Below, in pieces: positions 29,950 to 53,434 of a DNA stretch of 64,000 nucleotides; position 1 is the stretch's first letter; the number at the start of each line of letters is the position of its first letter. Source of the DNA: a virus (lineage: Duplodnaviria; Caudoviricetes); IMG/VR virus record IMGVR_UViG_3300021963_000003, positions 17-64,016 of that record; one strand, written 5' to 3'. Under the pieces are notes generated by a model. That model searched no databases. It saw only the letters and a program-made list of their open reading frames with translations, and was not told where the DNA came from. A program made the position numbers and the translations under genes.

Positions 29950-32900
29950 TTATTTGTTTTTTAATAAGTTAATTTCTGTAGATAATTCTTGGATAGCTTT
30001 AACAAGTACAGGTACTATTTTGGAATAGTCAACGCCTTGCATTCTTTCTTCATCTTTTTGTCCTGTTACTGCATAAGATAATATTTCAGCAAATTCGTGT
30101 GCTACAACTCCATACATTCTTGTTTTATCAGACTTCCATTTGTAATCGTATGTTTTTATTCTGTTTATTAAATCAATGCCTACAAAGTCTTTTAAATCTT
30201 CTTTTAATCTGTAGTCAGATGCTGTAGCATAGTTAGTTGTTGAACCATTAGTGCTAATCCCTCCGACATAAGTGCCATTTACAAAATGAGCAGTAAAATC
30301 ACCACTTGTATAACCTGAAGCCTTTGACCAATAATGATTTGAGTTGTTATTAACTTGTGATGAAGTTACACCCCCACCAATTGTTACACCTACGTTTACA
30401 GATGAACCTGTACCATTTCCTGTGGCATTTGTAGTTCCAAATAATACTGAACCCCCACTTAAAATTCGCATACGTTCACTTCCATTTGTATAAAATGCTA
30501 AAGGAATATTTGCCTCTACATTCCATCTTACTTGAGTATCGCTCCAATCTATATATCCAAGTCTTGTAACTTTATTTGTATTATAAAATAATATATCGGA
30601 ATATCCACTTGCTCCACTACCTATAAATTCCATATTATCGCCAGTTGCCCCTCTTTGAATAGATAATAAGGATGCAGGCGAACTCGTTCCAATTCCTACG
30701 TTGCCAGCAGAAGTAATTGTCATTCTTGCAGTTTGGTTAGTACCAAATTGTAAAGCAGTATTTGAAACTGATTGCAAAAGTGTAGCATAAGCTAAACTTC
30801 CAATCATTAAATCTGAGCCTACATTATTTTCTATCCCAAAGGACGCAATTCCCGATGTATTAGAGGCTCTATAAGCATTAACTGAACCAGTTGTTGCACC
30901 ATTACTATTAAAATTTGCAGACGAACTACCCAAACTACTTGTAACACTACTCGAAAACGTAGCTGCGCCTGTGGAGGCAATAGTTAATCTTGTCGTACCA
31001 GCATTTTTAATTAATAAAGCTCCTGAATTTTGAATAGAAAATATTTCATTAGTAGCATTATCTTCTATGATAAAAGCATAATTTGTAGATGTTGAACTTG
31101 TTGCTCTTAATAATAAAGTTGTACTAGCGTATGTTGCTCCACTTGTTGCTAACCCTAAATTTGTACCATTATCAAATATTAAACTATTACCAATTGTAGT
31201 ACTTGAAGTAAATTTAGCGTGATAATTAGTCGTTCCACTTAATGTAGCAGCCTTAGCATTTAATTGAGTTTGGATAGCACTTGTAACTCCCTTTACATAA
31301 GATAGTTCTGTAAGTGAAGGATATGTTGCAACCGCTAAACTTGCTATTGAAGTTGTACTATTAAAATAAGCCAACTCATTTATTGTACCCGTTCCCGTTA
31401 CGGGATTGGTAATAATTGTTTGGTAAGTACTTGATGCACTTGCGGTAGTTAAATAAGTGCTATTGTCGTAAGATATAGTTGTACCACTTATTTTAACAAA
31501 TCCCGTACCATTTAAAGCAGGTTGCCCACCTAAACCAACTAACGTATAAGTTGGAATATTCAGTACGTTAGAAACTAATGTAGCCGCACCACTTGAACCT
31601 GTAACTGTTAACGAAGTAATTCTGTTAGTATAAGCCGTATCCCAAGTTGCAATAGATGCAGTTGTTGGTATCTCGTAACCAGCAGTTAGACTAAATACTC
31701 CTGTTGTATTGGTATATGTAAGTCCTGTAGCAGAAGAAGATAGCCCCGTTAATGTTATATAATTAGAACCGTTTGTTAGTTGGCTATTATTAGTAGGAAT
31801 TGTTATTACTCCTGTTGTAGAATTATATCCTCCACTTCCTGCTACAAAACTTAATGACGCTAATGTTATGTAATTAGAACCGTTTGTTAAATGAGTGTTG
31901 TTTGTAGGAATTGTTATAACCCCTGTAGTGTTATTATATGCTCCACTTCCCGCTACAAAACTTAATGCAGTTAAAGCAATATAATTATTTGGGTTAGTTG
32001 CATTATAAGGTGTAAAACCTAACGTTGTCGCAATAGACTTCTTTTCCCATAAACTATTAGATGTATTATATGCTATAATATCATTATTAGCAGGAGATTG
32101 AGCCGATACATTATGAATCTCATCTAGTTCATATCCGTTCTGAATCTTAACTTCTATCTGTCCTAATGAAACGTGGCTTCTTGTAACAATACCTATGTAA
32201 ACTAAGTGGATAGGGGCATATTGTTTTGTAGCAGTATATGTTCCTGCAACGGTTCCTGACAAGTAAAGTTGTTGCCCTTCAGTAAATGCAGAAGTATCTA
32301 ATCCAACTAAGTCTCCTGTTATTACAACGTAGCCTTCCGCATTATTAGCAATGTTTGCTTGACATAATCCAAAGGTCTGTGCTGACGTAGAATCTCCTGT
32401 AGCTAATGCCTTGCTTACAATAGGATTGTTTCCCGTAGCACCACTTATGTAGACAACCGTTCCCTTAGTTAAGGTAGCACCTGTCTGATTTCTTACAAGT
32501 CTAACTAAAGAACCTGACTGCCCAGCCACAGGGAAAGTAATTAAACTTCCATCTCCCGCCACATATTGAGCAGTTGTTCCCGTAGGGTTTGGATAGTAAG
32601 TAGCGGTATCATAAGAAATTGTACCTGCAATAGATTTAACAAAACCTGTACCCGATAAACTCGCTTGCTTGGCGTTTAATGCGGTCTGTAAGTCAGTTTG
32701 ATTAGATAATGTTCCTGTGATACCACCCCATATAGTTCCAACCGTAGGGGAAACCTCAATGTAAGTAGCCCCGCTCCAGCGATATATCTTGTTAGTATCT
32801 AATGCAACGTATATCTTACCCGTCTCTCCTGTAGCAGGTAGTGCCGCTAAGTTAGCAAACTCCAACACATCGTCTACATAAGAAGGCAACTGAGTAGAAG

Positions 32901-35139
32901 GAACTAATCCTCCTCCATCTAAGGAAGCGTAGCCATTAGCAATACCTTTATTCGCTGCGTTCTCAGGTGTAAACCCTAGGGCAGTAGTTACGTTACCACT
33001 TGTGATACCCGTTATGTATCCAGCCCCATTTGTAATTTGATTGTTATTAGTAGGGATAGTTATAACACCTGTAGTATTATTGTACGCTCCACTTCCTGCT
33101 GCAAAACTTAAAGAAGTCAAGGCAATATAAGCGGACGGATTTGTTGCGTTGTAGGGGGTATACGTTAACGCAGTTGTAACATCAGAACTTGTTAAGGTGA
33201 TTGCACCAGTTCGTGTATTAAAGCTCGTTACACCGCCTTGATAAGCGGGAATATTTAGGACTCCTGTAGTATTATTATAGGTAGCACTTCCGCTTGTTCC
33301 TGTAGTAGTAAGACTTATGGCAGCTCGTGCTCTAGCGTCTGTGTAATAAAGGTTAGTTACCTCCGTAACCAACGCTGTAGTATAGTCTCCCGCTGTAGGA
33401 GTGATAGCACCTGTCCTAGAATTAAACGAGGTAACACCACTAGCTATAGTCCAACTCCTATCAGCAGACAAGTCAAAGCTAACTCCATTAATGGTTAGAT
33501 TTCTATTGGTAGGAACTGGCGTATAAGTTAATGCTGTTGTGACATCTGCACTAGACAAAACTATCGCACCAGTCCTAGTATTAAAGGAGGTTACACCCCC
33601 AATATAAGAAGGGATATTTAATACCCCTGTTGTATTATCGTAAGTAGCTGCTCCTGTAGTGCCTGTAGTAGTTAAGCTTATAGAAGTCCTAGCTCTTGCA
33701 CTAGTAAAGTATAGGTTAGTGTTTTCAGGTACGTTTGCAGTATTTAATGTAGCCAAAGCCCCTGCTCCCGTAATATATTGAGCTGAATTACCCGTTGCAG
33801 CTATAGCAAGCGTACCTGCAGTAGTTATAGGAGAACCCGTAATACTAAATGCCGCAGGAACAGTTAAAGCTACACTTGTAACAGTACCTACGTTAGCAGT
33901 AGCACCTGAAGCAATCCCATCTAACTTAGTCTTATCAGACGCACTCATCGCTCCCGCACTACCTGTAGTAGCAGCAGCTAACGAAAGAGCCTGAGTAGAG
34001 ATGCTTAGTCCATTAGCAGTACCAATGGTAACAGGGTTATGAAACCTTGAGTCGTTACCTTGAGCAAATGTATTTATTAGTGTGCCAAAGGTAGGGGAGT
34101 AGGTAATATTATTATTTGTAACTATAGGCACTAGTGCCGCATTCCCCGAAACAAATGTTAAAGTACTTCCTAGTGGAACAGCGTCTGTATTTGTGCCGTC
34201 AGATATATTGAATGAGTTAGCCCCCGAAACAGCTAACGAAAATGTTAGCATCTTAGTTGACTGGTAGGTATATGTTCCTGAATAAGGCTCAAGTATTGAC
34301 AACAACTCTCTTAGGATAGGCTCAGAACCATCTTGTGTGGTGGTCTGGTGCATAGCAATCAAGTGAGAATATAACGCAATAACTAAGTCATACTGCTCAC
34401 TTAATAAATTAAATTGCGTGTCATTAGTCTCCTTATATGCATCTATAATTACCCTATAAGCATTAATCTTTTGAACTAACTCTAGTTGATTAGGACATTT
34501 CCTAATATCAAACGTCTTAGAGAAAGTTCTTGTATATAAGATTGTTAGCCAAGCGTTAGAAGTATGGGTATAGGCTACAGATACAGCACTTGTAGGAGTA
34601 TAAACCCCCTCATAATAGTTTGCTCCAGAAACAACCGTAACTGTATTTGTTGACGTAGATGTTACAGGAGAGCTAGCTGACACCTCAGAAGTGCTAGGGA
34701 ATGAACCAGTAATAGTTCTTGTAAGAGCCCCCGTAAAACTACCAATAGGAGAATAAGAAGTAAGGTCTTTAAATACTACTTCGGGAGTAATAACATCTGA
34801 GAAGTTAGTAAGTCCATTACTTGGTTCAACCCAATTAAAATCAAATGTTCTTACTAATGGGGTCTGCCCAGCAGAAAGATTATTTATAACCGCATAAGAT
34901 ATAATATAAGTACCTGTAACTACGTTGCCACTTGCATCTACTTCGCAAGGAACATCTATAAAATTTCCAGCAGTAGATATATCAGGAGTACTAAAGTCAG
35001 GTAAGTTTCTAACAACTCCGTTAGGAAACTCTACTTTAAAGCATCCTTTGCCGTATGTAAAGCCTGTTGAGGTGTCTGTTAAGCGAATAACTTTTGTCGC
35101 AACGCTTATTCTAAACTGTATATTGAATGTTACTGCCAT
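29950..35139 (-). CDS. Long tail fibre with internal repeats and S74 chaperone
   Basis: 1729 aa; GVTSFN.RTGAI repeats; GNVGIGT; SDYRLKE..G..AHE..VDYSK..LVKAIQEL. Confidence 0.85.
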   Translation of the reverse strand: MAVTFNIQFRISVATKVIRLTDTSTGFTYGKGCFKVEFPNGVVRNLPDFSTPDISTAGNFIDVPCEVDASGNVVTGTYIISYAVINNLSAGQTPLVRTFDFNWVEPSNGLTNFSDVITPEVVFKDLTSYSPIGSFTGALTRTITGSFPSTSEVSASSPVTSTSTNTVTVVSGANYYEGVYTPTSAVSVAYTHTSNAWLTILYTRTFSKTFDIRKCPNQLELVQKINAYRVIIDAYKETNDTQFNLLSEQYDLVIALYSHLIAMHQTTTQDGSEPILRELLSILEPYSGTYTYQSTKMLTFSLAVSGANSFNISDGTNTDAVPLGSTLTFVSGNAALVPIVTNNNITYSPTFGTLINTFAQGNDSRFHNPVTIGTANGLSISTQALSLAAATTGSAGAMSASDKTKLDGIASGATANVGTVTSVALTVPAAFSITGSPITTAGTLAIAATGNSAQYITGAGALATLNTANVPENTNLYFTSARARTSISLTTTGTTGAATYDNTTGVLNIPSYIGGVTSFNTRTGAIVLSSADVTTALTYTPVPTNRNLTINGVSFDLSADRSWTIASGVTSFNSRTGAITPTAGDYTTALVTEVTNLYYTDARARAAISLTTTGTSGSATYNNTTGVLNIPAYQGGVTSFNTRTGAITLTSSDVTTALTYTPYNATNPSAYIALTSLSFAAGSGAYNNTTGVITIPTNNNQITNGAGYITGITSGNVTTALGFTPENAANKGIANGYASLDGGGLVPSTQLPSYVDDVLEFANLAALPATGETGKIYVALDTNKIYRWSGATYIEVSPTVGTIWGGITGTLSNQTDLQTALNAKQASLSGTGFVKSIAGTISYDTATYYPNPTGTTAQYVAGDGSLITFPVAGQSGSLVRLVRNQTGATLTKGTVVYISGATGNNPIVSKALATGDSTSAQTFGLCQANIANNAEGYVVITGDLVGLDTSAFTEGQQLYLSGTVAGTYTATKQYAPIHLVYIGIVTRSHVSLGQIEVKIQNGYELDEIHNVSAQSPANNDIIAYNTSNSLWEKKSIATTLGFTPYNATNPNNYIALTALSFVAGSGAYNNTTGVITIPTNNTHLTNGSNYITLASLSFVAGSGGYNSTTGVITIPTNNSQLTNGSNYITLTGLSSSATGLTYTNTTGVFSLTAGYEIPTTASIATWDTAYTNRITSLTVTGSSGAATLVSNVLNIPTYTLVGLGGQPALNGTGFVKISGTTISYDNSTYLTTASASSTYQTIITNPVTGTGTINELAYFNSTTSIASLAVATYPSLTELSYVKGVTSAIQTQLNAKAATLSGTTNYHAKFTSSTTIGNSLIFDNGTNLGLATSGATYASTTLLLRATSSTSTNYAFIIEDNATNEIFSIQNSGALLIKNAGTTRLTIASTGAATFSSSVTSSLGSSSANFNSNGATTGSVNAYRASNTSGIASFGIENNVGSDLMIGSLAYATLLQSVSNTALQFGTNQTARMTITSAGNVGIGTSSPASLLSIQRGATGDNMEFIGSGASGYSDILFYNTNKVTRLGYIDWSDTQVRWNVEANIPLAFYTNGSERMRILSGGSVLFGTTNATGNGTGSSVNVGVTIGGGVTSSQVNNNSNHYWSKASGYTSGDFTAHFVNGTYVGGISTNGSTTNYATASDYRLKEDLKDFVGIDLINRIKTYDYKWKSDKTRMYGVVAHEFAEILSYAVTGQKDEERMQGVDYSKIVPVLVKAIQELSTEINLLKNK

Positions 35140-35269: not shown

Positions 35270-36085
35270 TTAACCTAATCGGTTCTTGATAGCTTCTAGC
35301 TCATCTGGGGCATTCTCTTCTAGGTAGTCGGCTAAGTCCTTAATGTAATTCTTATTCGGAGCTTTCTTGTACTTCATTAACTCCTTTCCTGTCTCAGACC
35401 AAGAAAATACTTGGGCGTTAACGTCGTTCTTAATTACACCTTTCTTGATAGCTTCTTTAATCATTGTCTCTAAGCTAAGTGAAGCCCTCTCAACAATATC
35501 CATAAACTCTTCAGGATTCTCCTCTGAGAAGTCCTCTAATTGGTTCCGAATCTCTTCAATTGTCTCCGCATCAATTCCTAATGCCATTGCCACTTCCTTC
35601 GCTCTCTTGTCGTCTAATTCTAAAGCCGTGTTAACTGCCTTAACAATTAACTTACGTAAACTTCTTTCCTCTATAGCTTCTTTCTTGTTGTCTACCCTAT
35701 AAAAGATAGCCTCATTTTCATCGTTTTTATCCTTGTTAGAAGAATTAAAGTTACATAACTCTACAAACTGATAAATCTTTTGGTGAGTAGGATTACTTCC
35801 ATTTAAGAACAAGTAGCCTAAGTTAGATGCCGTAAAAACAATGTTTAAAAATACTGGATTACCATCATTGTCTATTCTTTCAATAGCTGCAATAGTAACA
35901 AATTCACCTTTAGCCTTGTCGTACACTACATCTGTAGATGGTATCTGATAGGCTGCAGGCATTAAAAACTTGCCAAAATTATCTGGGTCAGGTCTTACAT
36001 TAAGTACCCTGTAGCTAGCCCTTTCGTCTGGTTTTAATTTTTTCTGCATACTAGCAGAAAACTGATTGTATTCTGATGCTTTCAT
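35270..36085 (-). CDS. Conserved protein downstream of the major capsid protein (crAss-type assembly protein)
   Basis: 271 aa; position; AI..GVI motif. Confidence 0.6.
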   Translation of the reverse strand: MKASEYNQFSASMQKKLKPDERASYRVLNVRPDPDNFGKFLMPAAYQIPSTDVVYDKAKGEFVTIAAIERIDNDGNPVFLNIVFTASNLGYLFLNGSNPTHQKIYQFVELCNFNSSNKDKNDENEAIFYRVDNKKEAIEERSLRKLIVKAVNTALELDDKRAKEVAMALGIDAETIEEIRNQLEDFSEENPEEFMDIVERASLSLETMIKEAIKKGVIKNDVNAQVFSWSETGKELMKYKKAPNKNYIKDLADYLEENAPDELEAIKNRLG

Positions 36086-38662: not shown

Positions 38663-40954
38663 CTATTTTTTCAATTCCGACATCTTTTGATTTTTTATTT
38701 GTTGGACAAATTCGCGGCTGTCTGATTCTATTTTGGATACATTTATTTTCCCTTCTATTCTACCTTGTTCCATTAATGCTTCTCCTTGTTGTTTTTGTGC
38801 AAGCAATTGAGACTCAAGTTGTTTCTCCATCTGGATTACCTGCATCTTAATTTGAGCTTCCATCTGAAGTGTTTGTTGCTTAGCTTGTTCTGCTGCCATT
38901 GCTGACTGCTGTTGAATCTGCCCGTTCATTTGTTGTGCTTCCATTGCCCTTTGTTGAGTCTCCTCTTGGTTCTTTTTAATTCTATATCCAAGAAGCACCT
39001 CAGCGTACTTAAGGTTCTCTAGGTTTTCAATCATCATAGCGTCAGCTAAGGTAATCTGGTTTGATTGGATAGCCTGCTCAATTCTTCTTGATAGTTTTTC
39101 TTTCTCAAACTCAGTTGGCTTCTGGCGTATCTTTAGTCCGCACTCGTATGCTGAAACCTCGGGGTCTAACTTAAAGAACTGAACGCTCTCGCTTCCTAGT
39201 GCTCTGATATAACCTGATATTGTGCCGTTTATTGCACTATCTTGTATCCTAAGTGTTAAATCATAACATAATCTTTCCAACAAGTCTCTTTCGGCTCTCT
39301 TGATAAAGTCTAATGAGTTGTTAGTAGACTCACTTGCGTACTTAGCCACCCCGTTTAATGTGCGTGGGTCAGGAGTAGAGCCGTCTGTAATCTCGTTAAA
39401 TCCTAGAATGTCCCTAAGTAAATCAATATTCTGTTTAATAATATTAAAGTACTGTACAGCCTCGTTTCCAATACCGTTATCAAGTTCTTCAATAGGCTTG
39501 TAATTACTTGCTTGCCCTTCGTCATTTAATCTTCTATAAACTAAGTTACCTGTCTGATTGTATAAGTCTAAAATCTCCATTGGCTTTAATGCACGTCCTG
39601 CCTTTCCTAATGGAACGCCTTCGAGTGCACCAAGCTCAATCATAATACCTCTAGGTCTAGCCCTTAGCATTACGTTCTGTAGCTTGTACCACGCTAACTG
39701 TATTTGGTCAGCTAAACTCTTCATCTGGTCTCCTAGTGAGTAGGTAGCCATCTGGTACATATTAGGTGCTGCAATATGATAAGAAAGAGATGTGTCTGTT
39801 AACGACGACTTTGCTCTTTTCATATTTGTAGCAAGACCGCAGTCAAAAAATACATCTGAGCCTAGGACCCACTTTCCCTTGTAGACAACCTTGTAGTCTG
39901 TCTTAGAATACTTCTTATCTGAACGGTTAGCCTTTGCTTTCGCCGCCCTTCCTACGACTGTGTTGCCTTTGGAGTTTACTCTCTCTTCTAGCACCATTGA
40001 GTTATAAGAAAAGAACTCTAAGTCCATAACCTTAATTCTAAACCCGTCGTATATCCCGTCGTTGTTGTTATTGAGGTCTCGCATTGCAGAACTTGTATTA
40101 TACTTGTTCGCATACTTTTCTGAAATCATTTGGTAGTCCTCGTCACTTATCTTGTCTCCTGCCATCTGCTTCAAGTCCGCAATTGTCATCTCGGTTACTT
40201 CGCCTACGTACTGAATGTCCTTGAAGTTAGGGTCAGTAGTGTAGCTCATTACCAAGTTCATTGGATTAATTCGCTTAATCTTAATGTTACCTTGTGCGTC
40301 AAAGTATTCCTTGTATCCCCCTATGCCCCAGTCGTGTAAGTCTTCTACAACCTTAACCCTTTCGTTATCAAACTTATTTAGACTCATTATAAGTTCAAGC
40401 CCCTGCTCCATCTCAATTGCCATCCTGTGCTTGTATGAGTAGTTCATATACATATCAAGCTCCTGCATACTAGATGCATCCATCTCTGGGTCGGGTACTA
40501 TCTCTGGGTCTACCCCTTGTTTTTCAAATTCTTTTTTTAAGATTATCTTAGCAGCGTTGTCGGCATAAAATTTCTGCTTGTCGTCCTGTGCTACGGGGTC
40601 AACCGCGTCTACAGAAATAGAAAAGTCGGTTTTAAGCAAGGTAGCTAAGGCTATCCTCCTAAACTTAGGGATGATAGGGAGTATGTCCCAGTTAATGTTA
40701 ATCCAAGACTGGTCCTCGTTGGCGACTTCCCTCGGCTGTAGCAACTTCTTGTATCTACTAACCGACTGTTTACCATACATATACAACTTAATCTCGTGGT
40801 ACTTGTCCCTTCCGTTGTACATCTGGTTAGGGTAGTAGGTTGAAAAGTCTGACCACGCAGCCTTAATGTATTGAGCAACCCAATTCTTATCTTTTAGATT
40901 TGAGTCAATGGTGTGGCTAGGAAAGCCGTTGATAACTGGACTTGTTTCGTTCAT
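38663..40954 (-). CDS. Portal protein (crAss-like)
   Basis: 763 aa; Y..G.QS..RYK, N.NW..LPIIPKF, LY.QTG...R, G.NE..DGSTP motifs; Q-rich barrel. Confidence 0.9.
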   Translation of the reverse strand: MNETSPVINGFPSHTIDSNLKDKNWVAQYIKAAWSDFSTYYPNQMYNGRDKYHEIKLYMYGKQSVSRYKKLLQPREVANEDQSWININWDILPIIPKFRRIALATLLKTDFSISVDAVDPVAQDDKQKFYADNAAKIILKKEFEKQGVDPEIVPDPEMDASSMQELDMYMNYSYKHRMAIEMEQGLELIMSLNKFDNERVKVVEDLHDWGIGGYKEYFDAQGNIKIKRINPMNLVMSYTTDPNFKDIQYVGEVTEMTIADLKQMAGDKISDEDYQMISEKYANKYNTSSAMRDLNNNNDGIYDGFRIKVMDLEFFSYNSMVLEERVNSKGNTVVGRAAKAKANRSDKKYSKTDYKVVYKGKWVLGSDVFFDCGLATNMKRAKSSLTDTSLSYHIAAPNMYQMATYSLGDQMKSLADQIQLAWYKLQNVMLRARPRGIMIELGALEGVPLGKAGRALKPMEILDLYNQTGNLVYRRLNDEGQASNYKPIEELDNGIGNEAVQYFNIIKQNIDLLRDILGFNEITDGSTPDPRTLNGVAKYASESTNNSLDFIKRAERDLLERLCYDLTLRIQDSAINGTISGYIRALGSESVQFFKLDPEVSAYECGLKIRQKPTEFEKEKLSRRIEQAIQSNQITLADAMMIENLENLKYAEVLLGYRIKKNQEETQQRAMEAQQMNGQIQQQSAMAAEQAKQQTLQMEAQIKMQVIQMEKQLESQLLAQKQQGEALMEQGRIEGKINVSKIESDSREFVQQIKNQKMSELKK

Positions 40955-40958
40955 AATT

Positions 40959-42965
40959 TTATAGGAATATCTCCCTTACGTCATATAACTTTACTTTCTG
41001 TTCTGCCTTCTGAGCAAACTTTGACTTACTAGCCGCAATTAACGTATAACCTGCAGCCATCGCCGCATCAAATTTAGTTGTTTTATTTATATTAAAGTGC
41101 AACCAGTCGTCTAATAATTCTGTAAAAATAACTTTCTTTAGGTTGTCTGTTATATAGGACTCCGTCTCTTCTGCTATCTGCTGGTGTGTCTTTACAGTTG
41201 CGGAAATACCGTACTTACTAGCATTAGGCATCTTTGTAAGAAATCTTTCATAACCCCTATATTCAAAATATTTAATCAATCCAACCTTGTTGTCCTCAGA
41301 CAGGACCTCGCATCCAAAAAAATGGGCGAGCTTAATCATGTCCTCGTAAAATATTTCTGCTTTGTCTGGTCGGTTAATGTACTGAACTAAAAACGTTTCA
41401 CTCAGCTCGTCTATAGCGTCATACCTCCTATATGCGTAGCCTGCTCCATCTGAACGCTCATTACTTGTGGTGATGGAATGGTCAAAGGGGTCAACTGCAA
41501 TGGCGTACTTCTTTGTTTCCTTGGGTACTTTTTTAGTGCCGTAGTCCTCAACTTGGTTATAAAAGTTGTAGTCGTGGACATTGGCTTTGGAGTGGACCTT
41601 GAATTTACCGTTTGCTTTTTCAACAAACAGAACCCTTGTGTCCCTCTCTCCCTTTTCCCAAACAAAGTCCCCTTGCAAATATAGTTCTTTTTTATCAATC
41701 CAAGTGATACTTTCTTTTTGTCTATTTAACGCAAGTGCGTCGTAGATACAACTCTCTGCTTCAGAAAAGAAAGCCTCCTCAATAGTAAAGGGATTCTTGC
41801 GTATAAAGGAAGCTAAAGCCCTGTTGTCGTCCATCAAGGCGTTACGCTCTCCCATATAAAACTCCTTAGCTTTTTCTTCGTCAGGGATGCCGTACTTGTC
41901 GTAGAACAAGGTCTTATAGGCGGGCATAAAGTACTGATATAGACCCGACTTGGTTCTACCGTTAGTGTTCTTCTTTCTTTGGTCAGATGCCTGCCATAGA
42001 GCCTTGAAGGATTCCCCTCCGTCTTCCATCTCCTCAACAGTTGTCGTATATAAAGCCTTGCCGATAATAGTCTCCTCTTGTTGCAAACAGAACTGAACAA
42101 CTTGGTGACGCTCATACACGTCAACGTTCTTTGTCTTACCCGCCTCGTCAGCTAGGTAGCGATGTAATTTCATTCCGTCGTAAGCAAACTTGTCAGAGGA
42201 CTTGAATGTTATCATTGACTCTAGCTCTACCTTCTCGGTAAAGATGTCGTCGTTAGCCCCGCGTTTGTTTGTCTTAAAAAACCTAAGCTCCCCTTTGGGG
42301 GTCATGCCCTTTTCGGTGTCGTAGATGGGTATAAAGAAGTCGGGTAGGTATTTAAATGGCATAATCACTCCCTTAGCAAACACGTTGTCCTTGGCGTCGT
42401 CAAATGTCTTGCTTTGGATACCTGCGTTCTTGTTCTTGCTTCTAGAGGTCAACTCAAATAAGAAAGCTCCTGCTCTCATCGTCTTTCCCTGACGACGCTT
42501 GGTGACCTCAATCATCCCCATACAATTCGGGTCTTGGATGCAGTACTCTAAAAAATAAAAGAAATGCAAGTCGGTAATCCTAAACTCGGGGTATCCAACG
42601 TCTAGCTTCCAATGGGTCAAGTAGAAGTAATGGAGCCCTGTTAGATATGTTCCCCTTCCGTTGTTGTAAAACCACAAGCCATTAAGCCTTCGGTCCCATT
42701 CTTGGTTACGATAGTTCTGAAGCTCAGGGTTGTAGTACTCAGGATTATTCTTTTGAACTAATATCTCCTTCTTTCTCTTAGTCTCGTAGTCAGCAGGTGG
42801 CTGAGGTCTTTCCCAATACTGATAGGCAGGCTTAGCAGAACGGCTAAGTATATCCCTCTCCTCCCACTTGTTTGTCATTATGTTAAAGACAACCCCGTTA
42901 GGGGGGATATTAATTTTTATCCCGTTTAATTCTATCTCTCTATTCCTCTTGTGTTTACGATACAT
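40959..42965 (-). CDS. terL: Terminase large subunit (crAss-like)
   Basis: TG.HYFYL, KRRQGKT Walker A, LADEAGK Walker B, RNase H-like AVDP..D and FDAAMA. Confidence 0.92.
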   Translation of the reverse strand: MYRKHKRNREIELNGIKINIPPNGVVFNIMTNKWEERDILSRSAKPAYQYWERPQPPADYETKRKKEILVQKNNPEYYNPELQNYRNQEWDRRLNGLWFYNNGRGTYLTGLHYFYLTHWKLDVGYPEFRITDLHFFYFLEYCIQDPNCMGMIEVTKRRQGKTMRAGAFLFELTSRSKNKNAGIQSKTFDDAKDNVFAKGVIMPFKYLPDFFIPIYDTEKGMTPKGELRFFKTNKRGANDDIFTEKVELESMITFKSSDKFAYDGMKLHRYLADEAGKTKNVDVYERHQVVQFCLQQEETIIGKALYTTTVEEMEDGGESFKALWQASDQRKKNTNGRTKSGLYQYFMPAYKTLFYDKYGIPDEEKAKEFYMGERNALMDDNRALASFIRKNPFTIEEAFFSEAESCIYDALALNRQKESITWIDKKELYLQGDFVWEKGERDTRVLFVEKANGKFKVHSKANVHDYNFYNQVEDYGTKKVPKETKKYAIAVDPFDHSITTSNERSDGAGYAYRRYDAIDELSETFLVQYINRPDKAEIFYEDMIKLAHFFGCEVLSEDNKVGLIKYFEYRGYERFLTKMPNASKYGISATVKTHQQIAEETESYITDNLKKVIFTELLDDWLHFNINKTTKFDAAMAAGYTLIAASKSKFAQKAEQKVKLYDVREIFL

Positions 42966-42966
42966 C

Positions 42967-43527
42967 TTATATGTTGGCTATTGACTCTGGGGTGTAGTTG
43001 ATAATCTTGTCCTTCTCCTGCTTGTTGTCCCCAAAGATTTTGTCCTCGTAGGACTCAATCCTTTTTATGATTGCGTCGCACTCTGCCATTAACTTACTTT
43101 TAATTTCAAGGGCTTGCAACTTGTCCTTGTCATTCTTGAAATTTACGATAGGAGTCAAAAGTTCTTGTTGGTATTGCCACAGTACTTCCTCGTTGGCTGC
43201 GAGAATAGCCCATACCTTCGACGATTGGTAGCGGAGGTATACGTTGATATACCCAAGCAATTTATCGTTGCTTAAATCAAAGATTTCGAGCTTGCCGTCT
43301 TTTATGTTAGCCATCTCAGCACACTCCTCTTTTCTTTCTACGATGTCAGGTATCTTTAATCGCAGTGGAGACTTGATATCATAAAGCAATGCAATGTACC
43401 TAAGCATCGGAATGTCGTCGGCTGAGACCTTGCCAAATATCTGGTTAACAAGTGGGTTCTTGTGAAGGTCCTTGTCGTTCACGGGTAGTAGGATGCTGTT
43501 GTATTCTGAATCTGTAAATATTGCCAT
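42967..43527 (-). CDS. Putative terminase small subunit
   Basis: Immediately upstream of terL; helical; YD.KSP motif. Confidence 0.45.
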   Translation of the reverse strand: MAIFTDSEYNSILLPVNDKDLHKNPLVNQIFGKVSADDIPMLRYIALLYDIKSPLRLKIPDIVERKEECAEMANIKDGKLEIFDLSNDKLLGYINVYLRYQSSKVWAILAANEEVLWQYQQELLTPIVNFKNDKDKLQALEIKSKLMAECDAIIKRIESYEDKIFGDNKQEKDKIINYTPESIANI

Positions 43528-43671
43528 AAGATTAATAAATTAATTACTGTTTTGTCGGAGCTCGCCGAACCGCGCCGCCGCCCGCCAGTTCCTCTTTGCT
43601 TTGCTAACTAGATTTGGTGTTTAGTAAGACTGCGTCTTCCTTTTCAAACTCAAAAAAAAATCGCAACTCTA

Positions 43672-43788
43672 TTGTTCTTTTTTACTATTATTCTTTATTA
43701 CTATTATTCTTTATTACTAAGGGGTGCGATTTTCGAACGTTCGATTTTCGAAGGTTCGATTTTCGAACGTTCGATTTTCGTACTATGG
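43672..43788 (-). repeat. Gene-less iteron array plus AT-rich repeats (second origin-like element)
   Basis: About 3.6 copies of 15-bp CGATTTTCGAACGTT (43727-43780) and 3 copies of 16-bp TAGTAATAAAGAATAA (minus strand); inverted homolog of 51581-51680. Confidence 0.85.
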
Positions 43789-43817
43789 TATTTTGTTTAC
43801 ATTGATACATTTTATAC

Positions 43818-44480
43818 CTATACGCTTTCTAACTCCATCTTTTTACCAAATATATCAGATTGCCTAACTGTAAAATATTCTACATCTTCAATCTTATTTA
43901 TAAAATTTGAGTTCTTAGCAAGTACTACCGTATCACCCTGCTTTACGTCCAATTCTTTTTGATTCAACAAGGGCTTGCCAATATAAGAAAGCTTCGCAAA
44001 CTTGACAGACTTCTTCTTTTGAATTGAAGTGACAAGACCCGCGCCGCTTAGTGTCGCCTGTATCGTGCGACCCCCGACCTCCACGCTCTCAAACTCTTCC
44101 TCCTCTTCAACAATCTGACTACATAAAGTCCACCCTCCAACAGGTAATATATTGCCGTCCCTAACAACACAAAAAATCCAATAGTAAGGTACTTTATAAC
44201 TATTGCCGTATACACAATTTGTTTCATCTGACGTAGTTAAATAATGAAAATAAACTTTGTCTCCAACTCTCACCTCCTGCTCTATCTCAAAGCCTTCCTC
44301 GTTGTAGCACTTGCCTTGCGGGATAGCCTCGACTATACCATAAATTCTTGCGTGATGTGTTGGGTTAAAAAGAGGGTCAATAAACACCTCTAAACTTCCG
44401 TGTTTGTAGGTCGAGTCTAATGCCTCCTCAACGCGTACGATGACAGCATTTACTGCTGATTGCTTGATGTTGTAGTTCAT
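43818..44480 (-). CDS. GroES/Cpn10-like co-chaperonin with two domains
   Basis: EVRVGDKVYFHY and DVKQGDTVVL...I...EY...RQSDI motifs; start placed at MNYNIK. Confidence 0.65.
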   Translation of the reverse strand: MNYNIKQSAVNAVIVRVEEALDSTYKHGSLEVFIDPLFNPTHHARIYGIVEAIPQGKCYNEEGFEIEQEVRVGDKVYFHYLTTSDETNCVYGNSYKVPYYWIFCVVRDGNILPVGGWTLCSQIVEEEEEFESVEVGGRTIQATLSGAGLVTSIQKKKSVKFAKLSYIGKPLLNQKELDVKQGDTVVLAKNSNFINKIEDVEYFTVRQSDIFGKKMELESV

Positions 44481-45272
44481 CTTATTAATTATTGTCTGGT
44501 TTGTAAATTCAAAGTTATATAATATTTCCCAATATATCCACCATACTTTGCGTCTAAGCAACTTAAATAGTTTAGACAATAGATTGCCTTAAGTTTGTTT
44601 TTTAGTAGCGTAGGGTTGTCGAAAAAGGGTTATATATATTATCCGACACCAACCAAATGAAAACGACAAACGACATTTATTTACCGAGTGGGGTCAACTT
44701 CCTTAATCCAAATTCCAAAATTCCTAGGACATTTAGATAGTTGTCTAATTAACTAATTCTATACTTAGCCATTTTGCTAATTAGTTGTTTAGCTAACTAT
44801 ATATTTAGTCAATCATCTAACCAAAAGAAAAACTATGTTACCATATATTAGAAAGGAAATCTATATTTCTATTGTATCATTGTGATACATTATATATTAG
44901 TAGGGAAATGTGGCTCTATGTCGTTTAAAGGGGGATAATCCCCTTCCACATACCCTTTATATAACAAAACCCGCATTAACTGTATTATGTAGGTGTTTAT
45001 CCTACATCCATTTTAAGCCACCATATCTTTGATTTAAGAGACTTTACCCCTCTAAATGTCCAATCATAAGGGCTATGTCAAGATAATTGTTTACACGCAA
45101 TTTCAGTACTTTATTACCGATTATTTCCCTTATACATATAGTATATAAAGGGGAGTTTCTTGATAAAGTACTATTTCGCTATAAATCTGTTGTACTATTC
45201 TAATAAAATGGGTATTTCGTCGACACATTCCTGTATTTCGTCGCTATTCTATGATATTATTATTGCTATGTA

Positions 45273-45302
45273 TTGTATAAATAAAAAGGTTTAGTACATT
45301 TG
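45273..45302 (+). promoter_or_regulatory. Major early promoter (Bacteroidota sigmaA)
   Basis: TTG-N19-TACATTTG. Confidence 0.75.
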
Positions 45303-45304
45303 TA

Positions 45305-45720
45305 ATGTCGAACGAGACATATGGTTGCCACTACTTGAGTGGTGCAAAGGATAAGGGGGCTGAGGTGTAAATTAAGCGGGTTTCGTACCTAGCTGAGGAA
45401 CGCTGATAAAGTAGGGTGTAAGTACTCGAAAAAGTCACACAGGTTTAGAGCCAACGCCCCCCGATAGTATGCTTAAAGCGTTCTTTGATTTATTGACTTA
45501 TAAGTTATAAGCGTCACAGCCACGAAACGGCTGACTCCACAGGTAGATAGGGGACACCCCGCACCTGTACGCACTGAACTCCTGTGTTGTCGAGAGGTAG
45601 TCTAGCTTACTAGACGGACAAAGCCAAACCGCAACACTAACCGCAAGGTAGTTGACCCGAAAGCGTAGCAACGAATAGATTGGATGCAGGGCGGTTCGAT
45701 TCCGTCCCTATTCGCTACAC
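45305..45720 (+). ncRNA. Structured leader RNA/ncRNA with boxA-like sequence and T-loop
   Basis: ORF-free and GC-richer than its flanks; multiple stems; GTTCTTTGA; GNRA loops; GGTTCGATTCC. Confidence 0.6.
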
Positions 45721-45772
45721 AACAATGTGTAAATATATCGATTCGGTCTAGGTTAACCGATACATTAAAGCT

Positions 45773-46726
45773 ATGGCAACATACACAAAAACAGAAAAAT
45801 TAACTCAGTCGCAAATCATTGACAGCATCAACGACAGGGTAATCGCAGGACTACAGGACAAGGGACTTAGTTGGTTCAAACCATTTAAGGACGGCGTAAC
45901 AGGTAGCTTTCAAGCTCTCTCCGCATATGGCAGGGCTTACAAGGGTTGGAATCAATTTATCCTTTCGTCTATTGCTTTAGAGCGCGGCTGGGTCAACAAG
46001 TGGTACACCTTTGCACATATCCAAAAATGCGAGGGCTACATTAATAAAGGCGAGTCAGGTACTAACATCTTTATGTGGCAAATAAGCTACGCAGTTGAGC
46101 GTAACGGAAAGACCACGTTTTACCCTGTGTTAGCGAGCGTACCTGACGCCGACAAGAAAGACGCTAAGAAAGTATTCTACCTTAAGCAGTGGAAAGTATG
46201 GTCTATATCACAGACTAACATACCACACAGCACACCTAACCTGCCTGTGACAGAGGAAGAGACGGAGCTTGACTCCCACGCAGACGCTGAGGCTATCCTG
46301 CAGGGTTGGGGCAAGGTTGTCCCTACCAAGCACACGAATCAAGGGCGGGCTTATTACTCCCCGTCTGCTGACTTTATCCATATGCCTGAAAAGACATCTA
46401 AGATGTGGCAGTCAAGCGGTGACTATTACAAGGTATTCTTTCACGAGGCTATCCACAGCACAGGTCACAAGTCTAGACTTAACCGCCTTGAGGAGACCGC
46501 GCGATTTGGTAACGAGGAGTACAGCAAAGAGGAACTAGTGGCGGAACTTGGAGCGTTGTACCTAGAGACTATCACAGGAATCGATTGCCTAGTGGACGAC
46601 TTCAAGAACAGCCAAGCATACATCAACGGATGGATTAAGGCAATCGCTAACGACAAGAACCTTATAATGCAGGCATCTAAGAAATCACAAGAGGCTGTAG
46701 CTTTAATATTATCTAACGTAAACTAA
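45773..46726 (+). CDS. ardC: Antirestriction protein ArdC (ssDNA-binding domain plus zincin-like domain)
   Basis: W.KP, Y.G.N, W.TF, KGE.G; AYYSP..D.I.MP, HEAIHSTGH.SRL.R, YS.EELVAELGA, YI.GW. Confidence 0.9.
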   Translation: MATYTKTEKLTQSQIIDSINDRVIAGLQDKGLSWFKPFKDGVTGSFQALSAYGRAYKGWNQFILSSIALERGWVNKWYTFAHIQKCEGYINKGESGTNIFMWQISYAVERNGKTTFYPVLASVPDADKKDAKKVFYLKQWKVWSISQTNIPHSTPNLPVTEEETELDSHADAEAILQGWGKVVPTKHTNQGRAYYSPSADFIHMPEKTSKMWQSSGDYYKVFFHEAIHSTGHKSRLNRLEETARFGNEEYSKEELVAELGALYLETITGIDCLVDDFKNSQAYINGWIKAIANDKNLIMQASKKSQEAVALILSNVN

Positions 46727-47088: not shown

Positions 47089-47147
47089 GTTCACGTTCCA
47101 CTATCATCTTTAACCTCACGATGTATAGGCAATCGTTATATTATATT

Positions 47148-47378: not shown

Positions 47379-47654
47379 ATGAAAACACCATTTGAACAAG
47401 CAGTTGAACAAGTTAGACAAGGTCGAATACAAGCACCCAAAGTATTAATGGGGAAAATGGATATGGATTACTTTGCCTATCAGCTAGTAGTCCATAAATA
47501 TAATCTAGGAATTATGGCTATGGGGATGACGTGTACAGGCGTCAAGTTTACAGACATCAAGAAGTACTACGGACTCAAGGGTCGGTCAGCTAAGGCTTGT
47601 AAGCCTGAGATTGAAGAGTTATTTAATAAGTACAAATCAAGTTTAAATCAATAA
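47379..47654 (+). CDS. Hypothetical early protein
   Basis: 91-aa ORF with A-rich start context. Confidence 0.6.
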   Translation: MKTPFEQAVEQVRQGRIQAPKVLMGKMDMDYFAYQLVVHKYNLGIMAMGMTCTGVKFTDIKKYYGLKGRSAKACKPEIEELFNKYKSSLNQ

Positions 47655-47699
47655 ACCTTTAACCTCACGATGTATAGGCTAATCGTTGTATTATCTAAT

Positions 47700-48206
47700 A
47701 TGAGAACAATTGAAATTAACCTTTACAAGTTCGACGAACTTAATGAGCAGGCTCAAGCTAAAGCAATTAAAGCCCATCAAGAAAATACCAATTATGATTG
47801 GTGGGATTCTATCGAGATTAATGCAGAAGAAAGCGGTGTTATTATAGAATCCTTTGACACAGACAAGGAAGACATAAGCGTATCATTCAAGTGGGAGGCT
47901 CACGATGTAGCTAACGCTTTGGTTAAGTTTTGGGGAGCAGATAGCGACATAGGTAAGATATGTCAAACGTTCCTTGATAAAAGAAATGTATTATATAAAA
48001 AGTATGCGGGAGATGAGGCTAGTACATACAATGAGAAGTTGTATGAATCGGAAGATGAATTGGTGGATGATTTCCATGCCGACGTGTCCCATTACTTTCT
48101 TAAGCAATTAAAGAATGAGTTAGAATGGATTGAATCCGACGATTACGCAAGGGGATACCTAAGCGATATGGACTACGACTTTATGGAAGACGGAACTGAA
48201 TATTAA
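47700..48206 (+). CDS. Acidic early protein
   Basis: LYKFDEL...AQ.KAI N-terminus and Y.F.EDG C-terminus; strongly acidic. Confidence 0.65.
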   Translation: MRTIEINLYKFDELNEQAQAKAIKAHQENTNYDWWDSIEINAEESGVIIESFDTDKEDISVSFKWEAHDVANALVKFWGADSDIGKICQTFLDKRNVLYKKYAGDEASTYNEKLYESEDELVDDFHADVSHYFLKQLKNELEWIESDDYARGYLSDMDYDFMEDGTEY

Positions 48207-48249
48207 ACCTTTAACCTCACGATGTATAGGTCAATCGTTGTATTATATT

Positions 48250-49147: not shown

Positions 49148-49196
49148 TCCCACTAGCAACAATAACCTCTCGATGTATAGGCAATCGTATACTAAA

Positions 49197-51022: not shown

Positions 51023-51267
51023 TGGCTCTGTCTGAAGACGACATCGCCTACTACAATGAATTTGTAGGGGCGTCTGCGTTGCATCAGCAATGTGACAGGG
51101 CGGTAATGCAGTTGCATAAACTGCACAGAGAGAGGGAGCTAGATGAATGGGCAAGAGTCCTAAGCTACGCAACACCTGATATGCCAGCGTTTGAGATTAT
51201 CCTTAATAAAGTAGAGGACTTAGTGGACTCTATTGACAAGGCTAATGCAATACTAAAATTGATATAA
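50935..51267 (+). CDS. Hypothetical protein (true start uncertain)
   Basis: Fills the gap before the initiator gene; helical C-terminus. Confidence 0.45.
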   Translation: MVHQSVTPRGQEDRHTYYEHCLLRKGKGLVALSEDDIAYYNEFVGASALHQQCDRAVMQLHKLHRERELDEWARVLSYATPDMPAFEIILNKVEDLVDSIDKANAILKLI

Positions 51268-51304
51268 ATCTTATGAGAAAGACACCGATTAATAAATTAA
51301 TCTT

Positions 51305-51994
51305 ATGAGCAAGACTAAAATAAGCGGACACTTTGGGCAGGCACCTAACGAACTACTAAACGACCCTGCTATAAGTTTAAAGGCTAAGGGGCTTTATGTT
51401 TATATGCAATCTAAGCCCGACGATTGGGTGTTTTCTCTTGACAGGATTTGTTCACAAAATAAAGACGGCAAGGCGTCGGTTCGCAACAGCATTAATGAGC
51501 TATGCGACGCGGGGTTCTTGTCTAAAGAAAGGCTGAATAAAGAAGAGGGAGGGACTATTTATTTATATAGACTAACAGACCCATCGTTCGAAAATCGAAC
51601 GTTCGAAAATGCGACGATGGGAAAATCGAACGTTCGAAAATCGAACGACTTAGTAATAAAGAATAACAGCAAGAAAGAAATAATAGAAACAAAGATAGTA
51701 GATGACCGATTCGAAAAGTTTTGGATTCTATACAACAAGGAGATTCAAAAGGACAAGTGCTATAGCGAATGGAAGTTTATAAACACAATAGACAAGGACA
51801 AGATTCTTAAGACCCTACCGCTATACATCGAGTCAACTCCAGATGTACAATTTAGAAAGCACCCATTGACCTACCTAAGAAACAAGGCTTGGTTAGACAA
51901 AGTCTTTATTCCTAAAAGCCAAAACCAAGACGCGAAAGCAACTCCAAGACCCGCCGAGCCCGCCGACAGAATTATTGTACCTGATAACTATTAA
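51305..51994 (+). CDS. Replication initiator (HTH N-terminus, lambda O-like organisation)
   Basis: PNELLND..IS.KAKGLY.Y..S.PDDW.F...EL...G; internal iteron linker; FE.FW..Y...HP.TYL...W.D C-terminus; upstream of dnaB. Confidence 0.85.
   Translation: MSKTKISGHFGQAPNELLNDPAISLKAKGLYVYMQSKPDDWVFSLDRICSQNKDGKASVRNSINELCDAGFLSKERLNKEEGGTIYLYRLTDPSFENRTFENATMGKSNVRKSNDLVIKNNSKKEIIETKIVDDRFEKFWILYNKEIQKDKCYSEWKFINTIDKDKILKTLPLYIESTPDVQFRKHPLTYLRNKAWLDKVFIPKSQNQDAKATPRPAEPADRIIVPDNY
51581..51690 (+). promoter_or_regulatory. Putative replication origin (iterons plus AT-rich region) inside the initiator gene
   Basis: Four GAAAAT-centred units of about 15 bp containing TCGAACGTTCGA palindromes, followed by an A-rich tract. 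Confidence 0.75.
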
Positions 51995-52006
51995 TCCAAA
52001 AAGAGA

Positions 52007-53434
52007 ATGAAGAACACACTTGTTGACACAATGCTAGAGGACGACGTTATTAGCTACCTACTAGAACAAACACACTACATTAAAGAAGCTAATAAAATAA
52101 TAGATGCCGACTCGTTTACTAGCACACTAGCTAGGGCGTCATACGTTGCGATGGTTGAATTATCTCAGGTCAGCAATACGTTCACACGTTTCGATGTATT
52201 TCGTGTGCTTAAATCAAAAGAATCGGAGTTAGGCGTTGACACCTCTGCGGTACTAAAGATGATGAGCAAGAGAATATTTGACTTGACGGACGTATGCTTT
52301 CAGTTGAAGGAGCTTGAGGTCAAGCGTAACATTGCGGGCATCATATCTAGGGTAAACTCTCAGATACTTAACGGCGAGGACTCGGCTATGATTCAGTCTA
52401 CTTTGTTTAGTGGAGTTGATTCGTTGCAGGCAGAGAAGACCAACGAGGAGGTTACGTCTATCAAGGACATATACGACAACGTAATCAAGGACTTGGGCGA
52501 CAACGCGGGAAAGAACAAGTTCTCAGGCATCGACACAGGAAGCAGGCTACTTAACTACACGTTAGGTGGATGGCAGAGCGGTATGATAGTAATCGCGGCT
52601 CGACCTTCGATGGGTAAGACTATTGTAGGCTTGGAACACGCTAAGGCAGGGGCTAAGTCTGGGGCTAATGTATTGTTTCTTTCATTAGAGATGCCAAAGG
52701 AGTCCTTGTTGTATCGAGTTATCTCGTCTGAGGCAACTGACTATAAGTACTCAGACTTGGGGGCATACAGGATAAGCAAGGAAGACATCGATATAATTTC
52801 TAAGTCAGACGCTAGGGGTCTAAGGGACTTGCCCATATTCTTTTATGATTCAGATAACAGGGATATGAACTATCTTTCCACTATCATCACCGCTGAGTGC
52901 AGGAAGAACAAGATAGACCTAGTCATCATAGACTATATGCAACTAATCAGGGACAATCAGATTAAAGACCAGAGCGACTTTGCTCAGGTGTCATCTGTAT
53001 CAAGTAAGATTCAAAAGCTAACACGTAAGCTCAACATCCCTATCATTGCATTGTCTCAGCTATCACGTTCAATAGAGTCTAGGACTGACAAGCGACCAAG
53101 TTTATCTGACCTGCGTTCAAGTGGCAACATCGAGCAGGACGCGTCTATTGTCATAGGGCTATACCGCCCTGACTACTACGCAATGTCAGAGGCAAGAGCT
53201 CAGAACCTACCTGACCCCGAGTTTACCCACGAGCTAGACTATGTGATACTCAAGAACAGGAACGGACGCACAGGTTCAGCTATTAGGTATTGTGACGTGA
53301 TGACCAACAGAGTAAGCGACGACAAGGAGACCTTGTTTAGGTTCACCCAACCTGATATATTATTTAGGGACTCGGTGATTAATACGATTGACAACGGATT
53401 TGATAATAACACCATAGTAGAAACCCCATTTTAA
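52007..53434 (+). CDS. dnaB: Replicative DnaB-like helicase
   Basis: AARPSMGKT, SLEM, IIDYMQL, LSQLSR, DLRSSGNIEQDA, KNRNG. Confidence 0.95.
   Translation: MKNTLVDTMLEDDVISYLLEQTHYIKEANKIIDADSFTSTLARASYVAMVELSQVSNTFTRFDVFRVLKSKESELGVDTSAVLKMMSKRIFDLTDVCFQLKELEVKRNIAGIISRVNSQILNGEDSAMIQSTLFSGVDSLQAEKTNEEVTSIKDIYDNVIKDLGDNAGKNKFSGIDTGSRLLNYTLGGWQSGMIVIAARPSMGKTIVGLEHAKAGAKSGANVLFLSLEMPKESLLYRVISSEATDYKYSDLGAYRISKEDIDIISKSDARGLRDLPIFFYDSDNRDMNYLSTIITAECRKNKIDLVIIDYMQLIRDNQIKDQSDFAQVSSVSSKIQKLTRKLNIPIIALSQLSRSIESRTDKRPSLSDLRSSGNIEQDASIVIGLYRPDYYAMSEARAQNLPDPEFTHELDYVILKNRNGRTGSAIRYCDVMTNRVSDDKETLFRFTQPDILFRDSVINTIDNGFDNNTIVETPF

Follow-up and report, generated by a model that had tools for sequence, protein, structure and literature searches.

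A probable second, non-coding origin module upstream of the packaging genes in a lineage of uncultured Caudoviricetes

Initiators of the lambda O type carry their origin inside their own gene. In lambda, the ori lies within gene O, where iterons are followed by an AT-rich region in the linker-coding part, and specificity follows the N-terminal domain of the protein. Here we analyzed a stretch of 64,000 nucleotides (nt) of viral DNA (Duplodnaviria; Caudoviricetes; positions 17 to 64,016 of the IMG/VR record IMGVR_UViG_3300021963_000003), which we call the window. The record is a metagenome-derived viral contig that has terminal repeats, is rated complete and measures 64,016 nt, nearly all of which is in the window. 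Besides an origin embedded in its initiator gene, the window hosts a 290-nt spacer upstream of the packaging genes that probably constitutes a second origin module for the same initiator. A preliminary description of this DNA had presented the spacer as a second, inverted and gene-less copy of the origin, and had taken the single origin of lambda O-type initiators as the known background. SPP1 is missing from this background: its initiator binds an oriL located within a gene as well as a non-coding oriR.

Second arrays of initiator-binding repeats, kilobases away from the origin and recognized by the same initiator, are also known from P4 (ori/crr), P1 (incC/incA) and F (incB/incC). P4 crr, P1 incA, F incC and the second sites of R6K work as cis enhancers or in handcuffing control, and have no unwinding block. 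RK2 oriV, a plasmid origin with DnaA boxes, shows the order iterons, AT-rich repeats and GC-rich stretch.

The most closely comparable system is SPP1. As described in parts of the published accounts (PMC6316719, PMC3485210, PMC3561973), gp38 of SPP1 binds direct repeats in oriL, which lies inside gene 38, and in oriR, which is non-coding and lies in the late region; each of the two has an AT-rich unwinding element, and theta replication has been reconstituted from oriL. The same parts propose that initiator-bound oriR stalls the fork and leads to a switch to concatemer synthesis, using the phage exonuclease, recombinase, SSB and resolvase. In our own repeat search of the SPP1 record (NC_004166), the origin copies appear as a 48-nt direct repeat with 87.5% identity, one in gene 38 (35972-36018) and the other in the gap that separates genes 7 and 8 on the coding strand (4901-4948). 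A literature search returned no description of such an origin pair in phages other than SPP1.

The two copies in the window

The non-coding copy occupies the spacer between a GroES-like gene and an open reading frame (ORF) of 186 amino acids (aa), while the other copy lies inside the replication initiator gene (rep). The features of the two sites are the following:

43528-43817 (-): spacer with the second origin module, 290 nt, between the GroES-like gene and the 186-aa ORF
43724-43782 (-): intergenic iteron array of four 15-nt units (T[TA]CGAAAATCG[AC]AC) with exact 15-nt spacing
43669-43716 (-): AT-rich block resembling a DNA unwinding element (DUE), with three 16-nt repeats adjoining the iterons
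43626-43638: small hairpin AAGAC-TGC-GTCTT, weak in the window itself
43553-43594: GC-rich patch just upstream of the 186-aa ORF
51305-51994 (+): rep, 229 aa, with the Pfam domain HTH_36 and matches to phrog_270 and phrog_428 ('replication initiation protein')
51587-51646 (+): genic iteron array of three units with at most 2 mismatches and one degenerate unit with a 1-nt insertion (51602-51616)
51650-51702 (+): genic AT-rich block, coding for a Lys/Asn/Glu-rich linker

Read in the sense of the left arm, the spacer proceeds from the iterons (43782-43724) through the AT-rich repeats (43716-43669) and the hairpin to the GC patch (43594-43553). A repeat search returned four iteron copies with 15-nt spacing in 43723-43795; the iteron range first reported ran further than the array defined here, to 43788. 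The three 16-bp AT-rich repeats reported for the non-coding copy were found at 43669-43716. The Pfam scan of the initiator returned only HTH_36 (E 3e-6, residues 23-72) and no Phage_rep_O match. The genic iterons code for residues ~93-115, between the HTH_36 domain and the C-terminal part, and together with the AT block they encode residues ~93-132.

The two copies lie 7.8 kb apart in inverted orientation. When the reverse complement of 43690-43788 is aligned with 51581-51680, 85 positions of 99/100 are identical with one 1-nt gap, in agreement with the almost base-for-base match noticed at the start, and the longest exact run common to both copies is 26 nt. The repeat search detected the pair as inverted arms of 91 nt at 43659-43749 and 51621-51711 (77% identity), plus a 30-nt arm (93%) and a 24-nt arm (100%). 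We searched the iteron 14-mer with up to 2 mismatches and obtained 7 matches in 64 kb, of which 4 lie on the minus strand at 43724-43782 and 3 on the plus strand at 51587-51646. All of them thus fall within the two sites. As a control, 100 shuffles gave a mean of 0.48 matches and a maximum of 3, and none of them reached 7. The feature is real and non-random. In this genome the non-coding copy is also the more regular of the two, as originally stated, with four clean units compared to a genic array in which two of the four units are degenerate. It is likewise correct that the AT-rich side of each copy faces the direction of transcription of its own arm. A motif of the AT block, GTAATAAAGA, is common to the spacer copy, the genic copy and the origins of the other initiators of the same family (family 1, see below).

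Two further similarities involve the rep gene. Around 20 nt before and including the start codons are alike in the 186-aa ORF and in rep (43525-43553 and 51279-51307; AATTAATCTTATG), and a second copy of the rep start region, 90% identical, lies 32 nt further upstream (51264-51283 and 51296-51315). Moreover, a shorter GC-rich motif, similar to CGCCCGCCGAC, is found at the 3' end of the family-1 rep genes (51948-51975 in the window, and in L009 and G26).

Covariation of the two copies among related genomes

We collected relatives by searching viral contigs with TerL, the large terminase subunit, which identified 18 loci with 70-81% identity. The initiator protein had returned only 4 short contigs, none of them reaching the spacer, and TerL was used instead. 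Sixteen of the 18 loci reach upstream of TerL and all show the same order: GroES-like gene, spacer, 186-aa ORF, TerL and portal. A seventeenth spacer was taken from the other end of its circular record, and the eighteenth locus (L027) starts inside TerL. All 17 spacers (212-331 nt) share the same layout of repeat array, AT-rich block, hairpin and GC patch, with repeat sequences that are wholly different among genomes (CTCTGGTGT-N4-AACACCA, TGGTAACTGATTACCA, TGCCCCTGTAGGGACA, CGTTCAACGGT and TTGGATTTTCCAAGG). The initiators at the locus belong to three dissimilar families, each with an origin inside its own gene and a matching copy in the spacer:

Initiator family 1: the HTH_36 type of the window, also in L009, G26 and perhaps G20
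215-aa initiator family: 11 genomes
Third initiator type: G21 and G22

In the rep loci examined (L011-L034), the three families share the slot upstream of a conserved DnaB, which is 55-61% identical to that of the window where whole. In these otherwise syntenic genomes, modules have clearly been exchanged at the replication locus. Outside these genomes, GGAAAATCC-type iterons occur inside HTH_36-type initiator genes of unrelated viral contigs (L038-L043), one cluster each; this set includes one GC-rich contig and one classed as provirus.

The preliminary description had proposed that, among related genomes, the intergenic iterons should change in step with those in the initiator gene of each genome. 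We measured this in 16 genomes, namely the window, 9 relatives with the rep region in the locus and 6 whose rep region was located via DnaB in their own records. L012 and L023, where the spacer is present and the incomplete records have no DnaB/rep region, and L027 are outside these counts. The score matrix was obtained from all-against-all local alignments between the first 150 nt of each spacer and the 900 nt upstream of each dnaB. The intergenic iterons do change in step with the iterons of their own rep gene in 16 of 16 genomes. No relative was found to lack the copy or to hold only a decayed, mismatched one, as all 17 carry the module and 16 of 16 match their own rep. The comparison of related genomes thus supports the core of the earlier reading, that of a second, inverted, gene-less copy of the origin.

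In each of the 16 genomes, the spacer in the TerL sense aligns with the sense strand of its own rep, with a collinear score higher than the opposite-strand score. Since TerL is encoded on one strand and rep and dnaB on the other in each of the 16, the two copies are inverted throughout. The own rep region ranks first for 11 of the 16 spacers, second for four and third for one. Of the five not ranked first, four all but tie with genomes that belong to their iteron class, and G15 is the remaining one. Own scores add up to 1588, far above the permuted sums (mean 677, sd 102, maximum 1182); none of the 20000 permutations gave a sum that high.

The way in which the two copies vary points to constraint on protein binding. 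Iterons of the 215-aa family share a common framework (CCCTMTG...CATACC), and their classes differ only in the half-site cores. In one iteron class, represented by 34 units from 5 genomes (19 intergenic and 15 genic), the half-sites of the dyad are 80-99% conserved and the central 4 nt are variable. Conserved half-sites with a variable center are the pattern expected of a site bound by a dimer, and would reflect protein-binding constraint. Two pairs of genomes are particularly informative. G14 and G15 have 186-aa ORFs that are 99% identical and share a 3.8-kb block through the spacer with 91% identity; their iteron cores are unrelated, each in line with its own initiator, and between these initiators the DNA-binding region is 47% identical. 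The same pattern is found between G16 and G28 (98% versus 59%). These patterns indicate that the specificity bases have been replaced within a conserved spacer, in step with the initiator; the 186-aa ORF does not co-vary with the iterons. The AT block behaves similarly, as its motif tracks the initiator family in both copies: GTAATAAAGA in family 1, repeats of AAGTAAAG in the third family and AATAATACTA in G20. Finally, G16, G17 and G24 carry one and the same genic copy, which differs from the spacer copies at non-contact positions; this argues against recent or simple ongoing homogenization.

Because the spacer copy is re-specified together with the iteron classes and the initiator families, the comparative evidence suggests that the second site is under selection for initiator binding and is not a leftover. 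We conclude that the non-coding copy very probably serves as a functional binding site of the initiator.

The packaging-side half of the spacer has features of its own. The GC patch had been described as isolated, and it is indeed the sole 30-nt stretch with a GC content of at least 77% in the whole window. A GC-rich patch is present at the equivalent place in 17 of 17 spacers of the relatives, 14 of which contain the motif GCCGCGCCGCC, and the patch of the window resembles the reverse complement of the version in the relatives. It goes with the packaging-side half of the spacer, and is possibly a cos/pac site, a late control site or an origin boundary. In the relatives, the hairpin that separates the AT block from the patch (for example L014:9345-9365) has a CTTG loop and a stem predicted to comprise 7 pairs; comparison of 10 genomes shows compensatory changes in 5 of these pairs. 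The hairpin is followed by an A-rich run rather than by a T-run. The RNA fold of 43528-43680 in the window has a z-score of -0.01, scanning 43300-45900 against Rfam yielded no match at an E cutoff of 1, and a nucleotide search of the spacer region against GenBank phages returned no match. The only 'terminator' reported in the spacer by the promoter/terminator scan was rejected, as it coincides with the iteron palindrome itself.

Possible roles of the non-coding copy

We propose that the spacer is a second functional origin-type module for the phage's own initiator and the counterpart of the gene-embedded origin, with SPP1 oriR as the closest precedent. Based on sequence comparison, we assign to this proposal a rough probability of 0.78. 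The N-terminal winged-helix domain of the initiator would bind both iteron arrays, the initiator would open the AT block of the spacer, and DnaB would then be loaded so that a fork runs into the late arm. A true origin firing into the late arm is the most likely mechanism, with a probability that we put a little short of one half. An initiator-bound barrier like that proposed for SPP1 oriR, where a stalled fork would turn theta into concatemer replication just before the packaging genes, is possible at lower odds, and looping or control roles take up what remains. Opening and helicase loading are favored because the AT block has been retained in a family-specific form and because, according to part of a published account of iteron plasmids (PMC4081077), Rep proteins bind specifically to the repeated elements of the DUE, which they require if the origin is to be active. 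From these comparisons we infer binding and unwinding, the direction of the fork and any link to packaging. A more elaborate version can be suggested tentatively, although we find it rather doubtful as a whole: an inverted pair of initiator-specific, unidirectional origins would bracket the early region, with forks co-directional with the arms; the non-coding origin would be the principal or concatemer-generating one and would feed the terminase; and the specificity bases would be rewritten in a conserved framework each time an initiator allele or family is gained.

Several observations weigh against the proposal of a second functional module. The spacer of G15 scores 112 on the rep region of G11 and 92 on its own, and the own matches of G19, G20 and G28 are weaker (scores 52-69). 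Gene conversion between the homologous copies, instead of selection acting site by site, could contribute to the covariation. The GC skew, suggested earlier as a check, does change sign near 44-46 kb; it fails to locate the origin, because transcription also diverges near 44-46 kb. A single iteron cluster was seen in each of five further viral records that share the initiator family and the iteron type, all five being rated incomplete. Since these same-family records show one cluster, the second copy appears to be a trait of this phage backbone and not of the initiator family. In one Elemovirus, a representative of the nearest cultured group, no iteron arrays were found in the 42 kb examined. 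The closest cultured phages by TerL, which infect Flavobacterium, Cellulophaga and Tenacibaculum, reach at most 32% identity, and the BLASTP comparison between the window initiator and SPP1 gp38 is not significant (E 0.097).

Covariation fits any role that needs initiator binding, including that of a control or enhancer site. Here the bound array would pair with the genic origin by looping or handcuffing and would either limit initiation, like P1 incA or F incC, or be needed in cis for firing, like P4 crr or the R6K gamma origin with its distant origins. The same iterons at 7.8 kb distance in inverted orientation are compatible with looping, and the largest initiator family usually has one more intergenic than genic unit (by eye, and for class B from its iteron units). 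We nevertheless consider this role unlikely, since the spacer keeps an AT block whose motif follows the initiator family and which would be needless in a pure titration site. In addition, Phage_integrase, ParB_N and Resolvase gave zero matches when the whole complete record was searched, so a plasmid-prophage lifestyle that needs copy control is not indicated. The same two points, the family-specific AT block and the absence of ParB and integrase, weaken the incA-like titration site that had been among the functions first suggested. Assignment to the iteron control loci of the P1 incA/F incC type was rejected, given that the extra array carries the initiator-family-specific AT block and that ParB_N, integrase and resolvase matches are lacking.

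A transcription switch, where the initiator would repress or activate late transcription and the AT block would be a promoter instead of an unwinding element, has a lower probability still. The array does lie at the boundary between the last leftward gene of the early side and the packaging genes, and a conserved hairpin and the unique GC patch separate it from the first late ORF. However, a sigma-70-type promoter scan, whose scope does not include the promoters of Bacteroidota, the probable host group, found nothing in the spacer, and its 11 matches in the region do not exceed the shuffles (8.7 expected). The same AT block is also found inside rep, where a late promoter is not needed, and a switch leaves unexplained why the entire origin layout has been copied.

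It is highly improbable that the spacer is a functionless duplicate kept alike by gene conversion, or a substrate for inversion of the 7.8-kb segment. The copies are indeed inverted repeats of ~100 nt with 85% identity, and the conserved framework CCCTMTG...CATACC of the largest initiator family could support conversion. A duplicate of this kind is hard to reconcile with a module that is in place in 17 of 17 relatives and in three initiator families without a common sequence framework, or with the genic copies of G16, G17 and G24, which differ from the intergenic ones at spacer positions within one iteron class. As for inversion, which the preliminary description had considered, the evidence goes the other way: all 16 genomes have the segment in one orientation, no inverted-sense joint links the two iteron sites in the contigs assembled from 4 of the 24 listed sequencing runs, and no serine or tyrosine recombinase gene was found. 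An invertible DNA segment was therefore rejected despite the inverted repeats, given the single orientation in 16/16 and no match to Resolvase or Phage_integrase.

The contigs of the same 4 runs, whose depths are unusable as copy number, also bear on the assembly of the two sites. In two runs, which are possibly the source of the record, the spacer is covered by single contigs at 43379-45222 and 42261-44936, and the genic copy by others at 51125-52202 and 51088-52320, all with zero differences. The other two runs contain close relatives. One of them, a lake-water run, gave contigs over 42000-43816 and 51183-52629. In a contig from a freshwater run, 43527 is joined to 43839 by 236 other letters, corresponding to a relative with a different spacer cassette and conserved flanks. 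That the second copy is an artifact of assembly, as could be feared for a metagenome-derived viral contig and as had been named among the outcomes to look for, has a negligible probability, because single contigs span both sites without differences and 17 other assemblies have the same architecture.

Genome setting and comparison with known systems

The genes of the window are organized in two divergent arms, transcribed leftward from ~44.6 kb and rightward from ~45.8 kb. The genes around the two copies are the following:

43818-44579 (-): GroES-like gene with a Cpn10 domain at the C-terminus; it adjoins the spacer upstream and is the first gene of the left arm
42967-43527 (-): 186-aa ORF, directly downstream of the spacer
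40959-42965 (-): TerL (phrog_6681, E 2e-82)
38663-40954 (-): portal protein (phrog_6547, E 2e-86)
45773-46726 (+): first gene of the right arm, for an ArdC-like anti-restriction protein that has a zincin-like metallopeptidase domain
52007-53434 (+): DnaB-type replicative helicase, next after the initiator gene
55119-55892: PD-(D/E)XK exonuclease, right arm
62396-62761: RusA-like resolvase, right arm

The 186-aa ORF has no match in Pfam or PHROG, and an Atlas search led to small-terminase clusters as a weak lead only (score 0.78). The ArdC-like gene is conserved at ~60% identity in 9 of the 18 TerL loci and is followed, ahead of the initiator, by small early ORFs. The motif TTTAACCTCACGATGTATAGGC... 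occurs four times in the right arm (47098-47136, 47647-47685, 48199-48237 and 49150-49188), each time just before one in a succession of early ORFs, and these copies may be early promoters or operator sites. The late arm contains three very large ORFs on the minus strand, at 3750-12761 (3003 aa), 29950-35139 (1729 aa) and 15322-19050 (1242 aa).

The gene-poor divergent region contains a non-coding, GC-richer stretch of ~415 nt (45295-45708, plus strand), whose end is a minihelix resembling the T-arm/acceptor part of a tRNA (GGGCGGTTCGATTCCGTCCC). Its identity to L022:7288-7707 is 88% over 420 nt and that to L021 is 76% over 236 nt, and it is better conserved than TerL between the same genomes. 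We found no Rfam match to this stretch, ARAGORN returned no tRNA or tmRNA (0 genes in 44500-46000) and the z-score of the fold is -0.37. It is a candidate for an unknown phage RNA.

The window and its relatives probably represent aquatic phages that infect Bacteroidota, which are probably also the host of the window phage itself. Their natural pairs of recognition domains and DNA half-sites, available at two independent sites per genome, offer material for the study of initiator specificity. A simple annotation rule also follows from this locus, that is, to seek a second copy whenever iterons are found inside an initiator gene, which could reveal how frequent dual origins are in phages.

Compared with lambda, the window has its genic origin in the same position, in the linker-coding part between the DNA-binding and the C-terminal domains; lambda has one origin and the window two copies. 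With no Phage_rep_O match and a second copy present, the window was not classified with the lambda O type. The difference from P1 incA, F incC and P4 crr lies in the AT block, which is retained in the window, and in its genome, where no plasmid-maintenance or lysogeny genes were found. Furthermore, the initiator of P4 is a primase-helicase, while the window has a small HTH protein and a separate DnaB. The order of elements in RK2 oriV resembles that of the intergenic module, although the GC patch of the window goes along with the half of the spacer on the packaging side and possibly has nothing to do with replication.

The similarity to SPP1 is more extensive. In both phages direct repeats together with an AT-rich block lie inside the initiator gene, and a second, similar copy is non-coding and located in the late region, near the packaging and head genes in SPP1 and upstream of the 186-aa ORF, TerL and portal genes in the window. 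Both have a DnaB-type helicase gene after the initiator and recombination genes for an exonuclease and a Holliday-junction resolvase, and in both the polarity from iterons to AT block follows local transcription. Both initiators match phrog_428 (4e-14 for the window initiator, 1e-48 for gp38) and phrog_186 (1.5e-8 and 1e-20, respectively); compared directly by BLASTP, they show no significant similarity. The two systems differ in arrangement, since the SPP1 copies are direct, ~12-13 kb apart and within a genome transcribed in one direction, whereas those of the window are inverted, 7.8 kb apart and placed on divergent arms. Unlike SPP1, the window has its copy directly before the ORF that precedes the terminase gene and beside a unique GC patch, has no separate helicase-loader gene between rep and dnaB, and has its nearest cultured relatives among phages of Flavobacteriia. 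Binding of the initiator to both copies has been shown for SPP1, and is suggested for the window by covariation. The role of SPP1 oriR is presented, in the parts of the accounts cited above (PMC6316719, PMC3485210, PMC3561973), only as a proposed fork barrier; here a whole uncultured lineage keeps such a copy and re-specifies it in step with around ten iteron classes and three initiator families. The locus is probably a variant of the SPP1-type dual origin and not a new kind of system.

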